A stretch of 64,000 nt of DNA, taken from positions 160,001-224,000 of IMG/VR virus record IMGVR_UViG_3300014590_000001; one strand, written 5' to 3'. Below the pieces are notes generated by a model. That model did no database searches. It was not told where the DNA came from and was given only the letters and a program-made list of their open reading frames with translations. Source of the stretch: a virus (lineage: Duplodnaviria > Caudoviricetes). A program made the translations under genes and the position numbers. Of this stretch, positions 47,667-55,504 are shown in pieces; the first letter of the stretch is position 1; every line of letters starts with the position of its first letter.

Positions 47667-49328
47667 ATGTTTAGGTATGTTATGGATACTTTCATCATTA
47701 AGAATCCTGCATATCAGGAACTTTCCACGGTCGAATGGGTTCGCAAGAATGTTATCTTTGCGTGTCCTTATGACGGGCCAGCAGAAAAAGAGTGGGAATT
47801 CAGGGATCAGATTTCTACTTTCTTCTGGCATATTCTCCACTGCACACTTTATAACAGCAAGTTCAAAAACGTTAAGCGTCTTCCTGCTATTCCTTTCCCG
47901 TTTGTTTTAGGTTCCGCTAAACTGCCTTTAGTTTTCGGATCTGGAAGTGAGACAACGGCGAAAGCGAATTATTCAGGGAAATCGTCAACGGCAATTACTC
48001 GCTCTTTGAATTGGCTTAGGGAAAATGTTCTGGATGTGTCAGGTTATAAGTTTGGCGCAGCAGGATCGGAGTGTAGAACTTTCCGCATCAAACGTGAAGT
48101 GTTTGAGGGTATGTATCCGCACTGTCCAAAAACTCCGGATGAAATTCTCCGGAAGACAAGATATTGCAGTCCTAAGTTTTTACGCAGCACTCCTATTGGG
48201 AAAACGCTGACTGATATTCTCGCAAAGAAATCGGTTAACGCTTTAGGTTTGCCATCACACGATTTTGAAGCGCTGCATCGCAGTACGGATCGTGAGGCAC
48301 GAAAACTTTATAAGGAAGTTTTATCTCGTCAGGAACCGATCACGTTAACGCTTCTTCCAATTGCGGAAGAGTTGAGTCGCCTGAGCAATTTCTTTAGTAT
48401 GCAAGGACGCTCGCGTTATCGTCTTGTGTTTTCCAACACAATGAATATTTTGTCCGGAAAGTTTACGTGTCACAATCTGGATGAAATGAAAATTTCTTAT
48501 CTGCCTACATATCGTGTGAGTCCAGTTGGCGGTCGTTTGTATGAATGCGGTGGCGGTTTTCAAAACATGCCGCGCAGCATTAAAGAGCGGTGCCACATTA
48601 AAGGCTACAACCACGATATGAAAAGCAGCCAACTAAACATTTTAAAACTTGAGTTCGAGCGCAACAATATTCGTTGTAACTCAATTCGAGATTTTAAAAG
48701 CGTTGCAGATTTTGGCGCACCTTACGGTTTGTCGAAAGAGGATACGAAAGTTTGTTTCTATGCGACGGTGTTTAGTATTGGTCAAGCGCTTCACTCAAAG
48801 TCTTGTTGGCATAGCGAACCTCTACGCGTGATTGCAAAATCAAAACGCGCTGAGTGTATCCGTCGTGCGGCGAAACAATTGAAGAAAAAATATAAGGATC
48901 TTTCAATGCTACAACCTGTGATCGATAAGGCTCGCAAGTTGATGGTCAAAGAAACTTTCCGTATTCGTGATATTTGGAACAAAGAAAATGAATCTTTAAC
49001 TCTGGCGCTTGAAGCATTGTGTGATACGTATATTTCTAAGGCTCGCAAGGTCAAAGAAAATTCCGTGTTAACTAATGCAGTCGGTGTGCGATTCTCTTGG
49101 CGTTCCGATTCAATTGACTACAAAATTCGCAAACAAATTCTGAGTCACATGATCACTGGAATCGAAACAAAACTTTTGTTCGATATGATTTTGTCAAACA
49201 ATGTTAAAGTCTTTTCCTTTGAACACGATGGCGCGTTAATCAGTCGAGCGAAAGTTTCGTCTGAGGGTATCGAATGGGTTCGTAAACCTTTCGATGAAAC
49301 TTCTTACCAATATTTCAAAAATCTGTAA
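47667..49328 (+). CDS. divergent superfamily-A nucleic-acid polymerase (TV-Pol-like), no exonuclease domain seen
   Basis: GGRLY...FQNMPR, motif A HDMKSSQLNIL, motif B-like TKVCFYATVF, motif C FEHDGALI. Confidence 0.7.
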   Translation: MFRYVMDTFIIKNPAYQELSTVEWVRKNVIFACPYDGPAEKEWEFRDQISTFFWHILHCTLYNSKFKNVKRLPAIPFPFVLGSAKLPLVFGSGSETTAKANYSGKSSTAITRSLNWLRENVLDVSGYKFGAAGSECRTFRIKREVFEGMYPHCPKTPDEILRKTRYCSPKFLRSTPIGKTLTDILAKKSVNALGLPSHDFEALHRSTDREARKLYKEVLSRQEPITLTLLPIAEELSRLSNFFSMQGRSRYRLVFSNTMNILSGKFTCHNLDEMKISYLPTYRVSPVGGRLYECGGGFQNMPRSIKERCHIKGYNHDMKSSQLNILKLEFERNNIRCNSIRDFKSVADFGAPYGLSKEDTKVCFYATVFSIGQALHSKSCWHSEPLRVIAKSKRAECIRRAAKQLKKKYKDLSMLQPVIDKARKLMVKETFRIRDIWNKENESLTLALEALCDTYISKARKVKENSVLTNAVGVRFSWRSDSIDYKIRKQILSHMITGIETKLLFDMILSNNVKVFSFEHDGALISRAKVSSEGIEWVRKPFDETSYQYFKNL

Positions 49329-49364: not shown

Positions 49365-50537
49365 GTGCCTACTAAAAAAGCACGGCAAAAACCGTTAACA
49401 GAAGAGGAAATGCGTAAAGAGGTGCTATTAAAGTCTCCGCTTCCTGCGTGGCAGAAAGAAGAGATTCGCGCTGGTCGCATTCCTGAAGCGTCGGAAACAA
49501 AGGCTGTAAAGAAAGTTAAGAAAGTAAAATCGAAACCTGAAGAAAAAGAGGTTGCTGATAAAAAGGTGAAACCCAAACCGAAGGTGAAGATTAAAAAAGA
49601 GAGGACGTTGAAAATTTATCAACTGGCTGCGCTATACGAGTATTATCATCGTAACACCGTGCTGGAAGATTATTCGCGCTGTCCTCCAATAACGATTGCA
49701 GAGGCTACGGAACTGGTCAAAGATATTAAGTCTTCTGATCTGGAATCGTGGCCTGAAGTTGATCGTTTATTTAAAAATCATCCAACACCTTCACGCGAAA
49801 ATAAGAACGTTCTCGTGCAACATCAATACGATGACATTCGAGAGTTTCGACACGCTCTTATCGAGAAGGAAATTTATGTCGGTATCAGTATTCCGTTGTT
49901 CATCGAACATTTGAAAATCGATCTGGATGATCCGATCATGCTAAGTTTTTCTTACGTGTGGTCTGGTTACATTAAGACGATGATCGAACGTAAAAAGAAG
50001 CGCGGCGATATTCTTTCGCGTCACGCATCTACCGTTAAGGACGGAGTGTATTGTTTCGAGATTGAGTGTAACGCAGAGCAAGCAAAAATCTTAGACCGCT
50101 ATTGTGAAGTTGCGCATGGCACTTTGATCGCTGCCCGTGATTATCTCAAGACTTTAGGCAAACGCGCTCCGTACAAGCTGGACAAAATCAGCAATAAACT
50201 TGCTACTCAAATTCGCGCAGAGCATGGCTTCGAAGATGTTCCGCGCAGTTTGGTTGTCAGCGCCCTTAACGGCTACGCACATAAAGTAAAATTCGATCCT
50301 AGCAAAGAGTTTAAAAAAGAACTCTCTCGGTTCTACCTGAAAGATTCTTTTAAACTGCAAGAAGATTCTCTGACTGTCGGTAAAGCCAAAGATATTGCTA
50401 TTCGAAAAGTTGTGAGCGGTGAACCACTGACGTTTAAAGTTGTTGGCGTGAGTTTCCAGCGCGTTTCTCCTTTGGTGTATACGGTCGCGATTCAGTATTG
50501 CGATATCGAATACCAGCGGAGTAAATTTTCTAAATAG
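49365..50537 (+). CDS. fusion protein: Lys-rich/unknown N-terminal half + TnpB-like WED/REC half, lacking RuvC
   Basis: aa ~227-385 align by eye with the IS200/IS605 TnpB N-terminal half; the ORF stops where RuvC-I would begin. Confidence 0.6.
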   Translation: MPTKKARQKPLTEEEMRKEVLLKSPLPAWQKEEIRAGRIPEASETKAVKKVKKVKSKPEEKEVADKKVKPKPKVKIKKERTLKIYQLAALYEYYHRNTVLEDYSRCPPITIAEATELVKDIKSSDLESWPEVDRLFKNHPTPSRENKNVLVQHQYDDIREFRHALIEKEIYVGISIPLFIEHLKIDLDDPIMLSFSYVWSGYIKTMIERKKKRGDILSRHASTVKDGVYCFEIECNAEQAKILDRYCEVAHGTLIAARDYLKTLGKRAPYKLDKISNKLATQIRAEHGFEDVPRSLVVSALNGYAHKVKFDPSKEFKKELSRFYLKDSFKLQEDSLTVGKAKDIAIRKVVSGEPLTFKVVGVSFQRVSPLVYTVAIQYCDIEYQRSKFSK

Positions 50538-53050: not shown

Positions 53051-53372
53051 CGCACTGAATCGCAAAGGGGAAGATAATCAAGTCTTCCCTATTACTTTGG
53101 ATACTCCGCTCGTAATATACGAAACGGACGGTATGATATTTGTTGGCTCTCTTGCTGATTACGGTGACGGCATTTGGATTTTAGATCCGCATCTGTACAA
53201 CACTGAAACCGACTCATACACTCCGGTAAAAATCTCATTCAAGTTTAATGCTGGCGAAGATATTCGCAAAGTTCTCAACTCTGATGAAATTCGCTTTTAT
53301 GCGAGGACTGCCAATTTTAATCTCGGAATGATCTCTGGCGTTCCGTTTGTTTTCGATACAAGGATTCATTGA
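53040..53372 (+). CDS. hypothetical protein
   Basis: 110 aa. Confidence 0.65.
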   Translation: MLSDALNRKGEDNQVFPITLDTPLVIYETDGMIFVGSLADYGDGIWILDPHLYNTETDSYTPVKISFKFNAGEDIRKVLNSDEIRFYARTANFNLGMISGVPFVFDTRIH

Positions 53373-53947
53373 TGAAACTCGTTTTTGATTGGGATGATAC
53401 TGCGCTGCTTACGCATCCTTACTACGTTAAAGTTCTGAAAGAAACTCACGGCGATGATCTGCCGCTCGATCAGTATTTCACGAAAGACAACGGCGGCTCT
53501 GGTTTCCTCGGTCTGATGGAATCCGGTAGCTTCATGGATAAAGTTGAAATTCGCTCTGGCTTTATCGAAATGATTCGCCGTCTGGTTGCAGAAGGTCACG
53601 AAGTTTATTCGTGTTCGCATCGTGGTTATCATCGCATGGGTCACGTACTCACGCGTAAACTTTTCACCGAAGAAGAGTGGAATCTTTTCACTGAGCATTA
53701 CTTCCTCGATCCGTTTGTTGCACCAAACAAAGTTGAGTTTCTGCAAGAAGTGTTCGACGGCGAAGATTTTATTATCTTTGATGATCGACCTCACTTCACC
53801 TGCGAGCACAACGAAGAAGATGCTGAACATATTATTCTGTTTGATCAGCCGTGGAACAAAGAACTTCCTTTCGACCGCGTGTTTGCATTCGACGAAAACT
53901 TTATTTCTGTTCTGGATAAGAAGTTGGAAATTTATTCTAATTTCTAA
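53369..53947 (+). CDS. HAD-family 5'(3')-deoxyribonucleotidase-like protein
   Basis: FDWDDT, SHRG, K, IFDDRP, FDQPWN motifs. Confidence 0.85.
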   Translation: MMKLVFDWDDTALLTHPYYVKVLKETHGDDLPLDQYFTKDNGGSGFLGLMESGSFMDKVEIRSGFIEMIRRLVAEGHEVYSCSHRGYHRMGHVLTRKLFTEEEWNLFTEHYFLDPFVAPNKVEFLQEVFDGEDFIIFDDRPHFTCEHNEEDAEHIILFDQPWNKELPFDRVFAFDENFISVLDKKLEIYSNF

Positions 53948-54226
53948 TCTCGCACCGCAAGAAAAAAGTTTCGTTGTGGTACGGCGAGCTTGCATATGTG
54001 CGTTTACACGGAGCGCACAACATGGCAGTAAGACTCGCCAAGTGCCTATCACGCTAAGGCACTTTAATCTGCGTGGGGGTTTGTTCGGAGGTTCCGACAG
54101 CTTACGGGCAAACTCCAAAGCGACTAACAAAAAGTTTCTTTGGAGTTTGTCCAAAACTAAAATGATGAAATAAGATTTAACTTTACCCTGGAGGGAACCG
54201 AAGACGACGCGGTTCCCTTTTTTTTT
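53948..54226 (+). ncRNA. putative structured ncRNA (~280 nt; five stems, possible pseudoknot, terminator)
   Basis: Back-to-back inverted repeats including a 15-bp stem; G-U pairs favour the plus strand; ends in hairpin + T-run. Confidence 0.6.
54192..54226 (+). terminator. intrinsic terminator
   Basis: AGGGAACCG/CGGTTCCCT followed by a T-run. Confidence 0.85.
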
Positions 54227-54232
54227 GATCCA

Positions 54233-54257
54233 AATCTGTAAATTCCATGTATACAAT
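54233..54257 (+). promoter_or_regulatory. putative phage promoter AATCTGTAAATTCCATGTATACAAT
   Basis: Motif family member between the terminator and the dnaX-like start. Confidence 0.6.
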
Positions 54258-54280
54258 CAATCCGGTATGGAACTGAAAGA

Positions 54281-55504
54281 ATGGCGAAAGTAAAGAAACG
54301 CTCTTTTGACGGCGAAGGTAAAGTTGTCAAGAAGAAGAAAAAGTCAGGCGTAGAAATGGAAGTGCTGTCTACGATTAACTTTGCAAACAAGTATCGTCCG
54401 ACCAGCATTAAAGATTTCATCGGTCAGCCTCATATTCAAAAACAATATGCAGGTTGGTTGAAAACTAAAACTTTCCCATCGGTTATTTTAATCAGTGGGC
54501 ATTTGGGTTCCGGCAAAACTACGTTCGCAGGTATCATCGCTAAAACAATTAACTGCGATACGCTTGATGCTTGCGGTGAATGTCCGTCGTGTAAAGCGTA
54601 TGATGCAAAATGTCACCGCGATGTTCTCACCTACGATATGGGTAACGACAGCGGTAAAGTTGACGGCGCTCAACGCATTATCGAAAGCAGTAACTTGTCT
54701 CCTATGTATCGTCGCCGCGTATACATTCTTGATGAAGCGCATTTGATGACTTCTCAAGCGGAATCGAAATTCCTTATTCCGTTAGAGAATCCGGCACCGC
54801 ATACTGTTTGGATTCTGGTGTCAACCGATCCGCAAAAGATTAAGAGCACAATTCTTTCTCGCTGCGTTAAGCTGCCAATCAACCCAATCGATCCGGAAGT
54901 GATAGCTGAACGTATTCGTTATCTGGCGAAGAAAGAAAAGATTCTGCCGAAAGACAAGAAAGAACTGAAAGCGGCAAACGAAGCGATTGAAACTATCGCT
55001 GAATATTCTGGCGGCCAGTTGCGTGGCGCTATCGGTTTATTCCAGACTGTATACAGCGCGGTGAAAGGTGGTGAAACTTTCAATAATGATTTGGTGCTGG
55101 ATATGGCGGCATCCGATCCGGAAATCAATTTAGGTGATCTGGCTGTAGAATTTACGGCAGGTTATTTGAAAATGGATCTGGTTGAAACTATTCGCACCAT
55201 TCGTTCGACAGGTGATATTCGCGGTCTGCTGCACAAGACACGCTGGCTCTTGCATTATATCCTCGGTGATATTGCGAAGACGAATAAGTTTCAAACTGCT
55301 GAACTGCGCAAATTCTATGACGTGCGTAAAAAGAACAAGTTTGAAATTTCCCCTATCTCTGTAATCTATTTGCAGAAAGCGTTGTGTGATATTGAATTGG
55401 CGATCAATAGTTCCAGCATTCCCGTAGAAGTGATGTTTGAAAGTACAATCACTGGTTTAATGTCGGATATCTATTCCGGTAAACTTTCAGTCAAATTGAA
55501 GTAA
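54281..55504 (+). CDS. dnaX: DNA polymerase III gamma/tau-like clamp-loader subunit
   Basis: KYRP..F.GQ.H, GHLGSGKTT, C..CGECPSC, ILDEAHLMT, LENP, TILSRC, GGQLR. Confidence 0.92.
   Translation: MAKVKKRSFDGEGKVVKKKKKSGVEMEVLSTINFANKYRPTSIKDFIGQPHIQKQYAGWLKTKTFPSVILISGHLGSGKTTFAGIIAKTINCDTLDACGECPSCKAYDAKCHRDVLTYDMGNDSGKVDGAQRIIESSNLSPMYRRRVYILDEAHLMTSQAESKFLIPLENPAPHTVWILVSTDPQKIKSTILSRCVKLPINPIDPEVIAERIRYLAKKEKILPKDKKELKAANEAIETIAEYSGGQLRGAIGLFQTVYSAVKGGETFNNDLVLDMAASDPEINLGDLAVEFTAGYLKMDLVETIRTIRSTGDIRGLLHKTRWLLHYILGDIAKTNKFQTAELRKFYDVRKKNKFEISPISVIYLQKALCDIELAINSSSIPVEVMFESTITGLMSDIYSGKLSVKLK

Follow-up and report, generated by a model that had tools for sequence, protein, structure and literature searches.

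Comparative evidence for a previously uncatalogued family of pseudoknotted RNAs in jumbo phages of the Enterobacterales

INTRODUCTION

Stable structured RNAs encoded by bacteriophages are exemplified by the phi29-type pRNA (RF00044) and by the stable RNAs C and D (species 1 and 2) of phage T4, the latter being structured molecules to which no function has been assigned. GOLLD (RF01998) and ROOL (RF03087) are intricate pseudoknotted RNAs of phages and prophages, likewise without a known biochemical function. Small ribozymes are common in phages, and enterobacterial small RNAs (sRNAs) derived from 3' untranslated regions (3'-UTRs), such as CpxQ and SroC, are 60-160 nucleotides (nt) in length, act by seed pairing and are devoid of pseudoknots. 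Further, the omegaRNA of the ISDra2 TnpB system is a long structured RNA in which nucleotides -5 to -3, immediately 5' of the guide, make up the pseudoknot; 1-2 nt separate the guide from the 3' strand of the knot (PMC10097598). Here we describe an intergenic RNA at positions 53948-54226 of a 64,000-nt stretch of phage DNA (positions 160,001-224,000 of IMG/VR record IMGVR_UViG_3300014590_000001; this whole stretch is hereafter called the window). We present the evidence that it belongs to a structured RNA family, weigh the explanations that can be offered for it, and compare it with the systems named above.

RESULTS

The RNA stretch lies on the plus strand between an open reading frame (ORF) at 53369-53947 on its left and a clamp-loader gene at 54281-55504 on its right. 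Its minimum free energy is -104.6 kcal/mol, against -73.6 +/- 4.7 kcal/mol for dinucleotide shuffles (z-score -6.6, reached by 0 of 200). The minus strand gives an equal single-sequence z-score; because both strands fold equally well as single sequences, the strand was settled by comparison. Many covarying positions in an alignment of 25 homologues are dominated by G-U pairs, which would be A-C on the other strand, and the plus strand is therefore the folded molecule. A preliminary description, made from the letters of the window alone, had suggested a highly structured plus-strand RNA at this site, and the fold energy, the covariation and the G-U pairs in covarying columns bear that suggestion out.

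The comparative support is unusually clean in that the pseudoknot occurs in nine compensated versions. The strands of its first stem, Pa (AAGTGCCT/AGGCACTT), and of the pseudoknot helix were parsed with our own script in 27 homologues, which yielded nine different pairs of loop and distal strand, all nine of them complementary. In a cross-lineage matrix, a lineage's own loop/strand pairing gives the longest Watson-Crick run in every row, with ties in some, and shuffles of the loop within single lineages reach the observed run in 6-249 of 5000 trials. The linkers measure 6-10 nt, A-rich, between Pa and the 3' strand, and 1-2 nt in front of the loop strand. As judged from these sequences, the loop pairing, its covariation and the sterically adequate linkers are those of an H-type pseudoknot, so that both the stem and the knot drawn in the preliminary description are retained.

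That description had also proposed an alignment of homologues as a check, and the alignment reveals covariation. In the 25-sequence model alignment (A6), 91.0% of the cells form standard pairs, versus 44-47% after a shift of the partners by one or two columns. Changes on both sides affect 21 of the 34 pairs, and none of 500 shuffles reaches any of five measures. Double changes are seen in four of the five pairs of Pa (helix 1) and in five of the six pairs of the pseudoknot helix, counts that are conservative since the pseudoknot and Pa of several lineages stand one column out of register. Pb, made up of helices 3 and 4, is 96% and 87% paired, respectively, with six of eight pairs doubly changed, and Pc is 98% paired, with seven pairs that never vary and six with double changes. 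RNAalifold independently recovers Pb and Pc, as well as P1 and P2 in the small-type members defined below. The covariance models leave the pseudoknot strands unregistered in the small-type, Yoloswag-type, SNUABM_14 and fHe-Yen9-02 members; the family-wide pseudoknot counts given above come from our script and not from the model alignment.

We consider it very probable that these sequences constitute a real structured RNA family that was previously uncatalogued. As far as homologous sequences can reveal it, the comparison shows that selection at the RNA level on the plus strand holds a length-constrained 3' core.

The individual elements of this member can be followed from its 5' end. P1 (53954-53980) is, in the predicted fold, a hairpin that pairs 53954-53960 with 53974-53980 around an inner 4-bp stem. 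This ACCGCAA/TTGTGGT pairing, noticed at the outset, is retained in the Dickeya phages JA29 and JA11 and in the metagenomic relative mg109 (locus L109) with one- and two-sided changes from G-U to A-U and from A-U to G-C. The following domain, P2 (53983-54039), is closed by a helix of 53983-53988 with 54034-54039, and this GGCGAG/CTCGCC pairing, listed in the preliminary description, covaries across genera; the adjoining CTTGC/GTAAG helix proposed there is not conserved, and in its place stands an unpaired, purine-rich UAAGAC bulge (54029-54034). The bulge is near-invariant, being kept in 24 of 25 aligned sequences with fHe-Yen9-02 as the exception. P2 also encloses the hairpin P2a (53993-54025), a site of variable insertion at which the large-type phages of Erwinia and Yersinia carry 60-170 nt of extra helices in place of this hairpin.

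The pseudoknot follows directly. Pa (54040-54064) pairs 54040-54047 with 54057-54064 around a 9-nt loop, and the pseudoknot helix (54050-54075) joins loop nucleotides 54050-54054 to 54071-54075, with the A-rich linker 54065-54070 crossing Pa. Immediately 3' of the knot is a G-run (54075-54079), GGGGAG in most members, which is near-invariant as a whole and has three invariant columns. It may also pair at long range, over 3 bp, with a CUC close to the 5' end, a pairing that is invariant and thus shows no covariation. Pb (54080-54113) pairs 54082-54087 with 54105-54110, is extendable by 3 bp, and carries a small inner stem; its conserved apical loop, CCGACA (54094-54099), reads CCGUCA in the large types. 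A TCGGA/TCCGA hairpin had earlier been placed here; it is specific to this phage, and the homologues form Pb instead. Pc (54111-54147) has an invariant base, ACUCCAA/UUGGAGU (7-8 bp), and a covarying top (54122-54125 with 54133-54136). It corresponds to a stem initially drawn with 15 bp, of which the upper ~10 bp and the apical 4 bp are conserved; the lower 5 bp (54106-54110 with 54148-54152) are confined to small-type phages and share nucleotides with the 3' strand of Pb.

The last-mentioned overlap is part of a three-strand arrangement (54079-54087, 54106-54113 and 54146-54152), the middle strand being able to pair on either side. All three strands vary together in the three small-type lineages, with G/C/G, A/U/A and U/G/C at the key position. 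This alternative pairing may be a real conformational switch, or it may be a by-product of a short duplication. The large types form Pb only, and the extended Pc pairing is absent from them.

The 3' tail (54153-54189) is A/U-rich and, going by the alignments, largely unpaired; UUACCCUG, just 5' of the terminator, is conserved in all small-type members, and the tail as such is absent from the large-type members. The RNA ends in an intrinsic terminator (54190-54226; 11-bp hairpin plus U9, -16.6 kcal/mol), which consists of a G+C-rich hairpin with a U-run directly after it and is kept in the window phage, the JA phages and mg109, in agreement with its placement in the preliminary description. A consensus promoter/terminator scanner called nothing in the window, and it missed this terminator only because the loop is 9 nt. 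Thus, five of the seven elements originally listed stand, namely P1, P2, Pa, the pseudoknot and the terminator.

In the JA phages, the gap that contains the RNA is as conserved as the flanking genes. The same core can be recognized by eye in the syntenic gaps of Yoloswag, SNUABM_5, SNUABM_14, SNUABM_16, SNUABM_30, Alexandra, Y3, SNUABM_52, AD1 and fHe-Yen9-02, and a covariance model of the 3' core (R1) gives 80-126 bits on all these distant relatives. The R1 model adds further members in IMG/VR and metagenome contigs (loci L109, L151, L152/L162, L164 and L223); a search for the locus from the upstream protein alone yielded only JA29 and JA11. There is one copy of the RNA per genome, always between the genes for a phosphatase resembling HAD proteins and polynucleotide kinase (PNK) and for the clamp loader. 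The family spans at least six related genera, comprising Salmondvirus, Alexandravirus, Sasquatchvirus, Yoloswagvirus, Rivsvirus and unclassified phages, including the Yersinia phage fHe-Yen9-02. Within public collections that were prefiltered by exact patterns only, which limits this statement, it appears to be confined to one clade of Enterobacterales jumbo phages. A pattern-prefiltered search of 185,579 prokaryote genomes, directed at large-type members only, returned just hairpin-level false positives of at most 31 bits, and although the phosphatase gene also occurs in the more distant jumbo phages Moabite and KpLz-2_45, these have neither the synteny nor the RNA.

The 3' core, made up of the UAAGAC bulge, the 3' strand of P2, Pa with its pseudoknot and A-rich linker, the G-run, Pb and Pc, keeps a length of 142-149 nt across genera, and the 5' domain is variable, with ~85 nt in this phage and 120-250 nt in the Erwinia phages. 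On this basis, two subtypes can be distinguished. The small type, represented by this phage, the JA phages and L109, has the P1 hairpin and a short variable hairpin inside P2, and is followed on its 3' side by the A/U-rich tail, the terminator and then a promoter-like motif. In the large type, a terminator lies between the phosphatase gene and the RNA, and the 3' side consists of the promoter-like motif and then an ORF of 65 amino acids (aa).

Two side observations concern the large-type loci. In Alexandra (L011:1890-2016), and at the same site in all large types, a conserved block lies directly 3' of the phosphatase stop codon; this block, 5' of the RNA, comprises a sigma-70-like TTGTCT-N17-TCTAAT and a hairpin whose apical loop contains GGAG, followed by a strong terminator. 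It may represent a separate small RNA of ~90 nt or an attenuator that gates the RNA. In Yoloswag, an unannotated 67-codon ORF (L004:2408-2611; start MLRSCYRVVVDL) resembles ORFs of 65-69 aa that are annotated in Alexandra, Y3, AD1 and the SNUABM phages in the interval from the RNA to the clamp loader. The window phage and the JA phages are without this ORF.

The genome itself is that of a 256.7-kb jumbo phage with direct terminal repeats, a giant phage of the Dickeya/Erwinia type, with ~77% DNA identity to the Dickeya phages JA11, JA13, JA29 and JA33 (Salmondvirus). The RNA locus sits within a replication/nucleotide-metabolism module that includes the clamp loader and SbcCD-like genes. The upstream gene (53369-53947, plus strand, 192 aa), which is the left neighbor of the RNA in every family member, encodes a HAD-type phosphatase that is weakly PNK-like; it weakly matches PHROG 16292, 420 and 415, termed "polynucleotide kinase," and its tblastn relatives are annotated as HAD, 5'(3')-deoxyribonucleotidase or phosphoglycolate phosphatase. 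On the other side, the promoter-like motif TCTGTAAA (54235-54242, plus strand) precedes the clamp loader, lies outside the RNA and starts the next transcription unit. Such motifs occur at ~50 sites in the genome, mostly intergenic and 35-60 nt 5' of start codons, and the one that follows the RNA ahead of the clamp loader is kept in relatives. The form (A/T)CTGTAAA, usually with AAA before it, is found on both strands (e.g., at 54235-54242, 49322, 47635 and 57587 of the window) and is probably the phage's own promoter element, perhaps a middle or late one. No such motif lies directly 5' of the RNA in this phage, the nearest one on the same strand being at ~49322. Cumulative GC-skew has its minimum near 198 kb of the genome (~38 kb in the window) and its maximum near 86 kb.

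A search with Rfam 15 over the 64 kb gave no matches at gathering thresholds; at E <= 10 the window returned noise only, with best local matches of at most 18 bits versus thresholds of 41-100, and five relatives returned no matches at E <= 1. The classes covered include riboswitches, ribozymes, RNase P, 6S, SRP, tmRNA, pRNA, ToxI, C4, GOLLD/ROOL, HEARO and RAGATH. ARAGORN predicts neither tRNA nor tmRNA genes, whether for the window or across the full 256.7-kb genome, and the earlier statement that the RNA matches no tRNA, tmRNA or known ribozyme thus holds. We found no description of this RNA in the literature.

Other candidate identities were also considered. An antitoxin mimic had been put forward, and a ToxI-like type III antitoxin array of ~34-36-nt repeats would be the form to expect; there are no tandem repeats in 53800-54400, the locus is single-copy, and no ToxI-like Rfam match was found, so that the RNA is not such an array and the idea is unsupported. 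A protein sponge, raised in the same place, may apply. A CsrA sponge was dropped since the 4-5 GGA in 279 nt are at chance level, as was an operator role for the invariant inverted repeat, the half-sites of which are not enriched elsewhere in the genome.

DISCUSSION

The best overall explanation for this RNA, to which we give an even chance of being right, is a new family of stable, trans-acting, protein-binding RNA derived from the 3' end of the upstream operon. In this phage, because no promoter-like motif lies directly upstream and the nearest is at ~49322, the RNA would be made as the 3' end of an operon starting there, with its own 3' end set by the terminator at 54226, and it might then be cut free as a stable species of ~280 nt that would act in trans. 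The knotted scaffold would display the invariant UAAGAC, the G-run, the CCGWCA loop and the ACUCCAA/UUGGAGU helix as a platform for a conserved phage or host protein, the RNA serving either as the scaffold of a ribonucleoprotein (RNP) or as a decoy. The core is conserved while the upstream and downstream contexts differ between the subtypes, so that no single cis target is conserved, which favors action in trans. The sequence-invariant base of Pc beside its covarying top fits sequence-specific recognition by a partner; moreover, a rigid knotted scaffold with a few invariant unpaired nucleotides and a sequence-invariant helix is typical of protein-binding RNAs. Taken by itself, protein binding in trans is a tentative proposal for the mode of action, one that comes close to an even chance without exceeding it. 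The RNA is probably neither a programmable guide nor a riboswitch for the next gene.

Several points weigh against this explanation. The discrete transcript, its ends and its stability are predictions from sequence, and the partner protein is hypothetical. In the large-type phages, there is no clear promoter between the upstream terminator and the RNA. In the small types, the middle strand pairs either upstream (Pb) or downstream (extended Pc), with covariation in three lineages, and such alternative pairings could point to a conformational switch, i.e., to a cis-regulatory device. Finally, because the family belongs to one clade, its sequences are not independent, and the shuffle control overstates the significance.

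The rival explanation to which we give the best odds, although we still think it unlikely, holds that the RNA is a cis-acting regulator (a riboswitch-like switch, an attenuator or an element of processive antitermination) that governs read-through into the clamp-loader/replication operon. In all members, the RNA sits between two transcription units and beside terminators, and its few invariant junction nucleotides together with the pseudoknot resemble aptamers. Suggestive in this respect is that 54106-54113 can pair with either 54079-54087 or 54146-54152 but not with both, a choice that the window, the JA phages and mg109 retain despite changes in sequence; however, the alternative extension of Pc is absent from the large types. 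Likewise, GGUUCC in the Pb loop could pair with the 5' strand of the terminator in the window and the JA phages, but this antiterminator pairing (GGUUCC/GGAACC) is lost in mg109 and was rejected. Moreover, the terminator lies 3' of the RNA in the small types and 5' of it in the large types, no known riboswitch model matches, and the promoter-like motif follows the RNA in both types, from which it follows that the next gene has its own promoter.

A related proposal, which we also regard as improbable, is that jumbo-phage replication or gene control involves a new RNA-based mechanism of which this RNA is the functional core, either as a catalytic or as a conformational-switch RNA. In the switch form, the invariant UAAGAC bulge, the G-run and the ACUCCAA/UUGGAGU helix could possibly engage the replisome, RNA polymerase or the ribosome. 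In the base of Pc, GGAG resembles a Shine-Dalgarno (SD) sequence and CUCC an anti-SD sequence, and most family members, but not this phage, have another GGAG in the G-run. If this proposal were true, a new functional class of RNA would begin with this molecule, which would then be neither a passive nor a generic regulator.

The specific case of a self-processing ribozyme, which would cleave the polycistronic transcript where the operons meet, has little likelihood. The compact, length-constrained core, the pseudoknot, the handful of invariant unpaired nucleotides and the location at a junction of transcription units would all suit such an activity. Yet there is no match at E <= 10 to hammerhead, twister, pistol, hatchet, HDV-like, glmS or other Rfam ribozymes, no candidate cleavage site is definable, and the RNA is larger than typical self-cleavers. 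Equally hard to credit is a passive 3'-UTR stabilizer, in which stable hairpins would shield the mRNA of the upstream operon from 3' exonucleases: in this phage, the RNA does follow directly after the stop codon at 53947, has no promoter motif in front of it and ends in the operon terminator, but a stabilizer would need neither a covarying pseudoknot nor invariant bulges and loops, and in the large-type phages a terminator separates the RNA from the upstream gene.

A very unlikely alternative takes the conserved element to be single-stranded DNA (ssDNA), as a signal for initiation or priming of replication, or to be an origin-associated R-loop transcript of the replication module. The locus is indeed inside a replication gene cluster, and both strands fold equally well as single sequences; against this, the strand-asymmetric G-U pairs and a pseudoknot whose linker is A-rich are features typical of RNA, iterons and repeats are absent, and the minimum of the cumulative GC-skew lies ~16 kb away, a distance on which an origin at this site was rejected.

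The preliminary description had ventured that the RNA is the scaffold or guide, akin to an omegaRNA, of the TnpB-like protein encoded at 49365-50537, and this now seems highly implausible. The gene and the RNA apparently form one transcription unit, as judged from promoter-like motifs alone, of which the nearest upstream is at 49322; both are confined to this phage clade, and omegaRNAs are similarly long and pseudoknotted (PMC10097598). It is the phyletic pattern that largely refutes the idea, because the RNA is present in phages that lack the protein. A tblastn search with the window protein and its SNUABM_16 homologue finds the TnpB-like family in 22 phage records only, and the protein is undetected in the RNA-bearing Alexandra, AD1, Y3, SNUABM_30 and fHe-Yen9-02 (RNA scores of 80-133 bits). 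It is likewise missing from SNUABM_1, 2, 3, 17, 22 and 33, for which the assignment of the RNA records is by inference, so that at least 11 RNA-bearing phages have no detectable homologue; even at the level of one species, Y3 is without the protein and the isolate SNUABM_52 has it. The position of the knot, the conserved tail and the distance from the gene point in the same direction: ~75 nt of conserved structure (G-run, Pb and Pc) follow the 3' strand of the pseudoknot, which is thus not guide-adjacent; the 39-nt tail is not hypervariable, its conservation among the JA phages equaling that of the scaffold, and it is nearly identical in JA11, JA13 and JA29; and the RNA is 3.4 kb and six ORFs away from the gene. 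The search for targets that had been suggested was run on the phage genome and returned nothing of 14 nt or longer that matches the tail (54153-54191). In addition, Pfam and PHROGs do not recognize the 49365-50537 protein as TnpB. Separately, self-targeting by the tail was rejected, the genome having only low-complexity matches of at most 14 nt, none of them in the tail.

The distribution of the TnpB-like family is patchy in its own right: it is found in SNUABM_16, 18, 28, 35 and 36 and not in Alexandra, AD1 and SNUABM_30 of the same genus, and it is 84-100% identical within Alexandravirus where present. As far as these genomes go, this fits a swappable cassette.

To a small protein-coding gene overlapping the region we give practically no credence: although one plus frame is free of stops over the whole region in JA29, JA11 and mg109 (97-99 codons), and small ORFs are annotated inside the homologous regions of Yoloswag and SNUABM_5, the open frames of the window and JA29 differ in phase over 135 of the 267 columns aligned. 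Stops occur in the window, and the large types are without such a frame. An ATG-led frame that the JA phages and mg109 share is terminated in the window after 11 codons. The start codon and frame of the Yoloswag ORF are missing from SNUABM_5 and mg164, the small ORFs of Yoloswag and SNUABM_5 are not conserved from one of these phages to the other, and indel lengths are not multiples of 3. The regions L001:2474-2766, L002:2474-2771 and L109:772-1062 are stop-free in one plus frame, yet not coding, and G+C-rich structured RNAs can mimic ORFs. The ORFs annotated inside the RNA of Yoloswag (L004:1609-1773; HOR66_gp203, "gp204") and, on the minus strand, of SNUABM_5 (L005:2099-2224; MPK73_gp214) as "hypothetical protein" are, by the same comparison, probably mis-annotations, and the annotation of these genomes can be corrected for the probably spurious genes.

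Well-supported new classes of structured RNA are rare, and most of the known ones proved to be riboswitches, ribozymes or RNP cores. The phages that carry this RNA infect plant pathogens (Dickeya and Erwinia) and Yersinia and are under development for biocontrol. Several of them are cultured isolates, so that genetics and probing are directly feasible. The comparison also removes a tempting link to the TnpB-like protein nearby, one that is very probably wrong.

As read from its sequence and predicted fold, the architecture of the RNA fits none of the classes considered, and we regard it as a new RNA family that is well supported by comparison. The omegaRNA shares with it great length, extensive structure and a pseudoknot; however, the omegaRNA is encoded across or next to the 3' end of tnpB and carries a 16-nt 3' guide, whereas here the gene is 3.4 kb away, there is no variable guide, and most members of the phage RNA family are without a TnpB-like protein. 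The T4 RNAs lie in a tRNA cluster and are processed like tRNAs; in contrast, tRNA genes are lacking from the present genome, and in sequence the RNA bears no relation to those of T4. The sRNAs of the CpxQ/SroC type offer a closer parallel in this phage, where the RNA directly follows the last stop codon and shares the operon terminator, and where an A/U-rich stretch leads into this terminator, whose U tail is long; unlike in those sRNAs, the body here is a 230-nt knotted scaffold, and the large types are without the 3'-UTR arrangement. GOLLD and ROOL are comparable as intricate pseudoknotted RNAs of phages but measure 600-800 nt, versus ~230-400 nt here, and their models give no match to the present family, which differs in host range, being found in Enterobacterales jumbo phages only. 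The phi29-type pRNA differs in size and fold, its model being part of the Rfam library that gave no match, and it is encoded at the genome end beside packaging genes, whereas the present RNA lies in the replication module of a myovirus-type jumbo phage; the loop pairing here may be intra- or intermolecular, with linker lengths that suit an H-type knot within one molecule. Both are nonetheless stable structured RNAs encoded by phages, by prediction in the present case, and for the pRNA, too, covarying loop complementarity between related phages was the key to the architecture.

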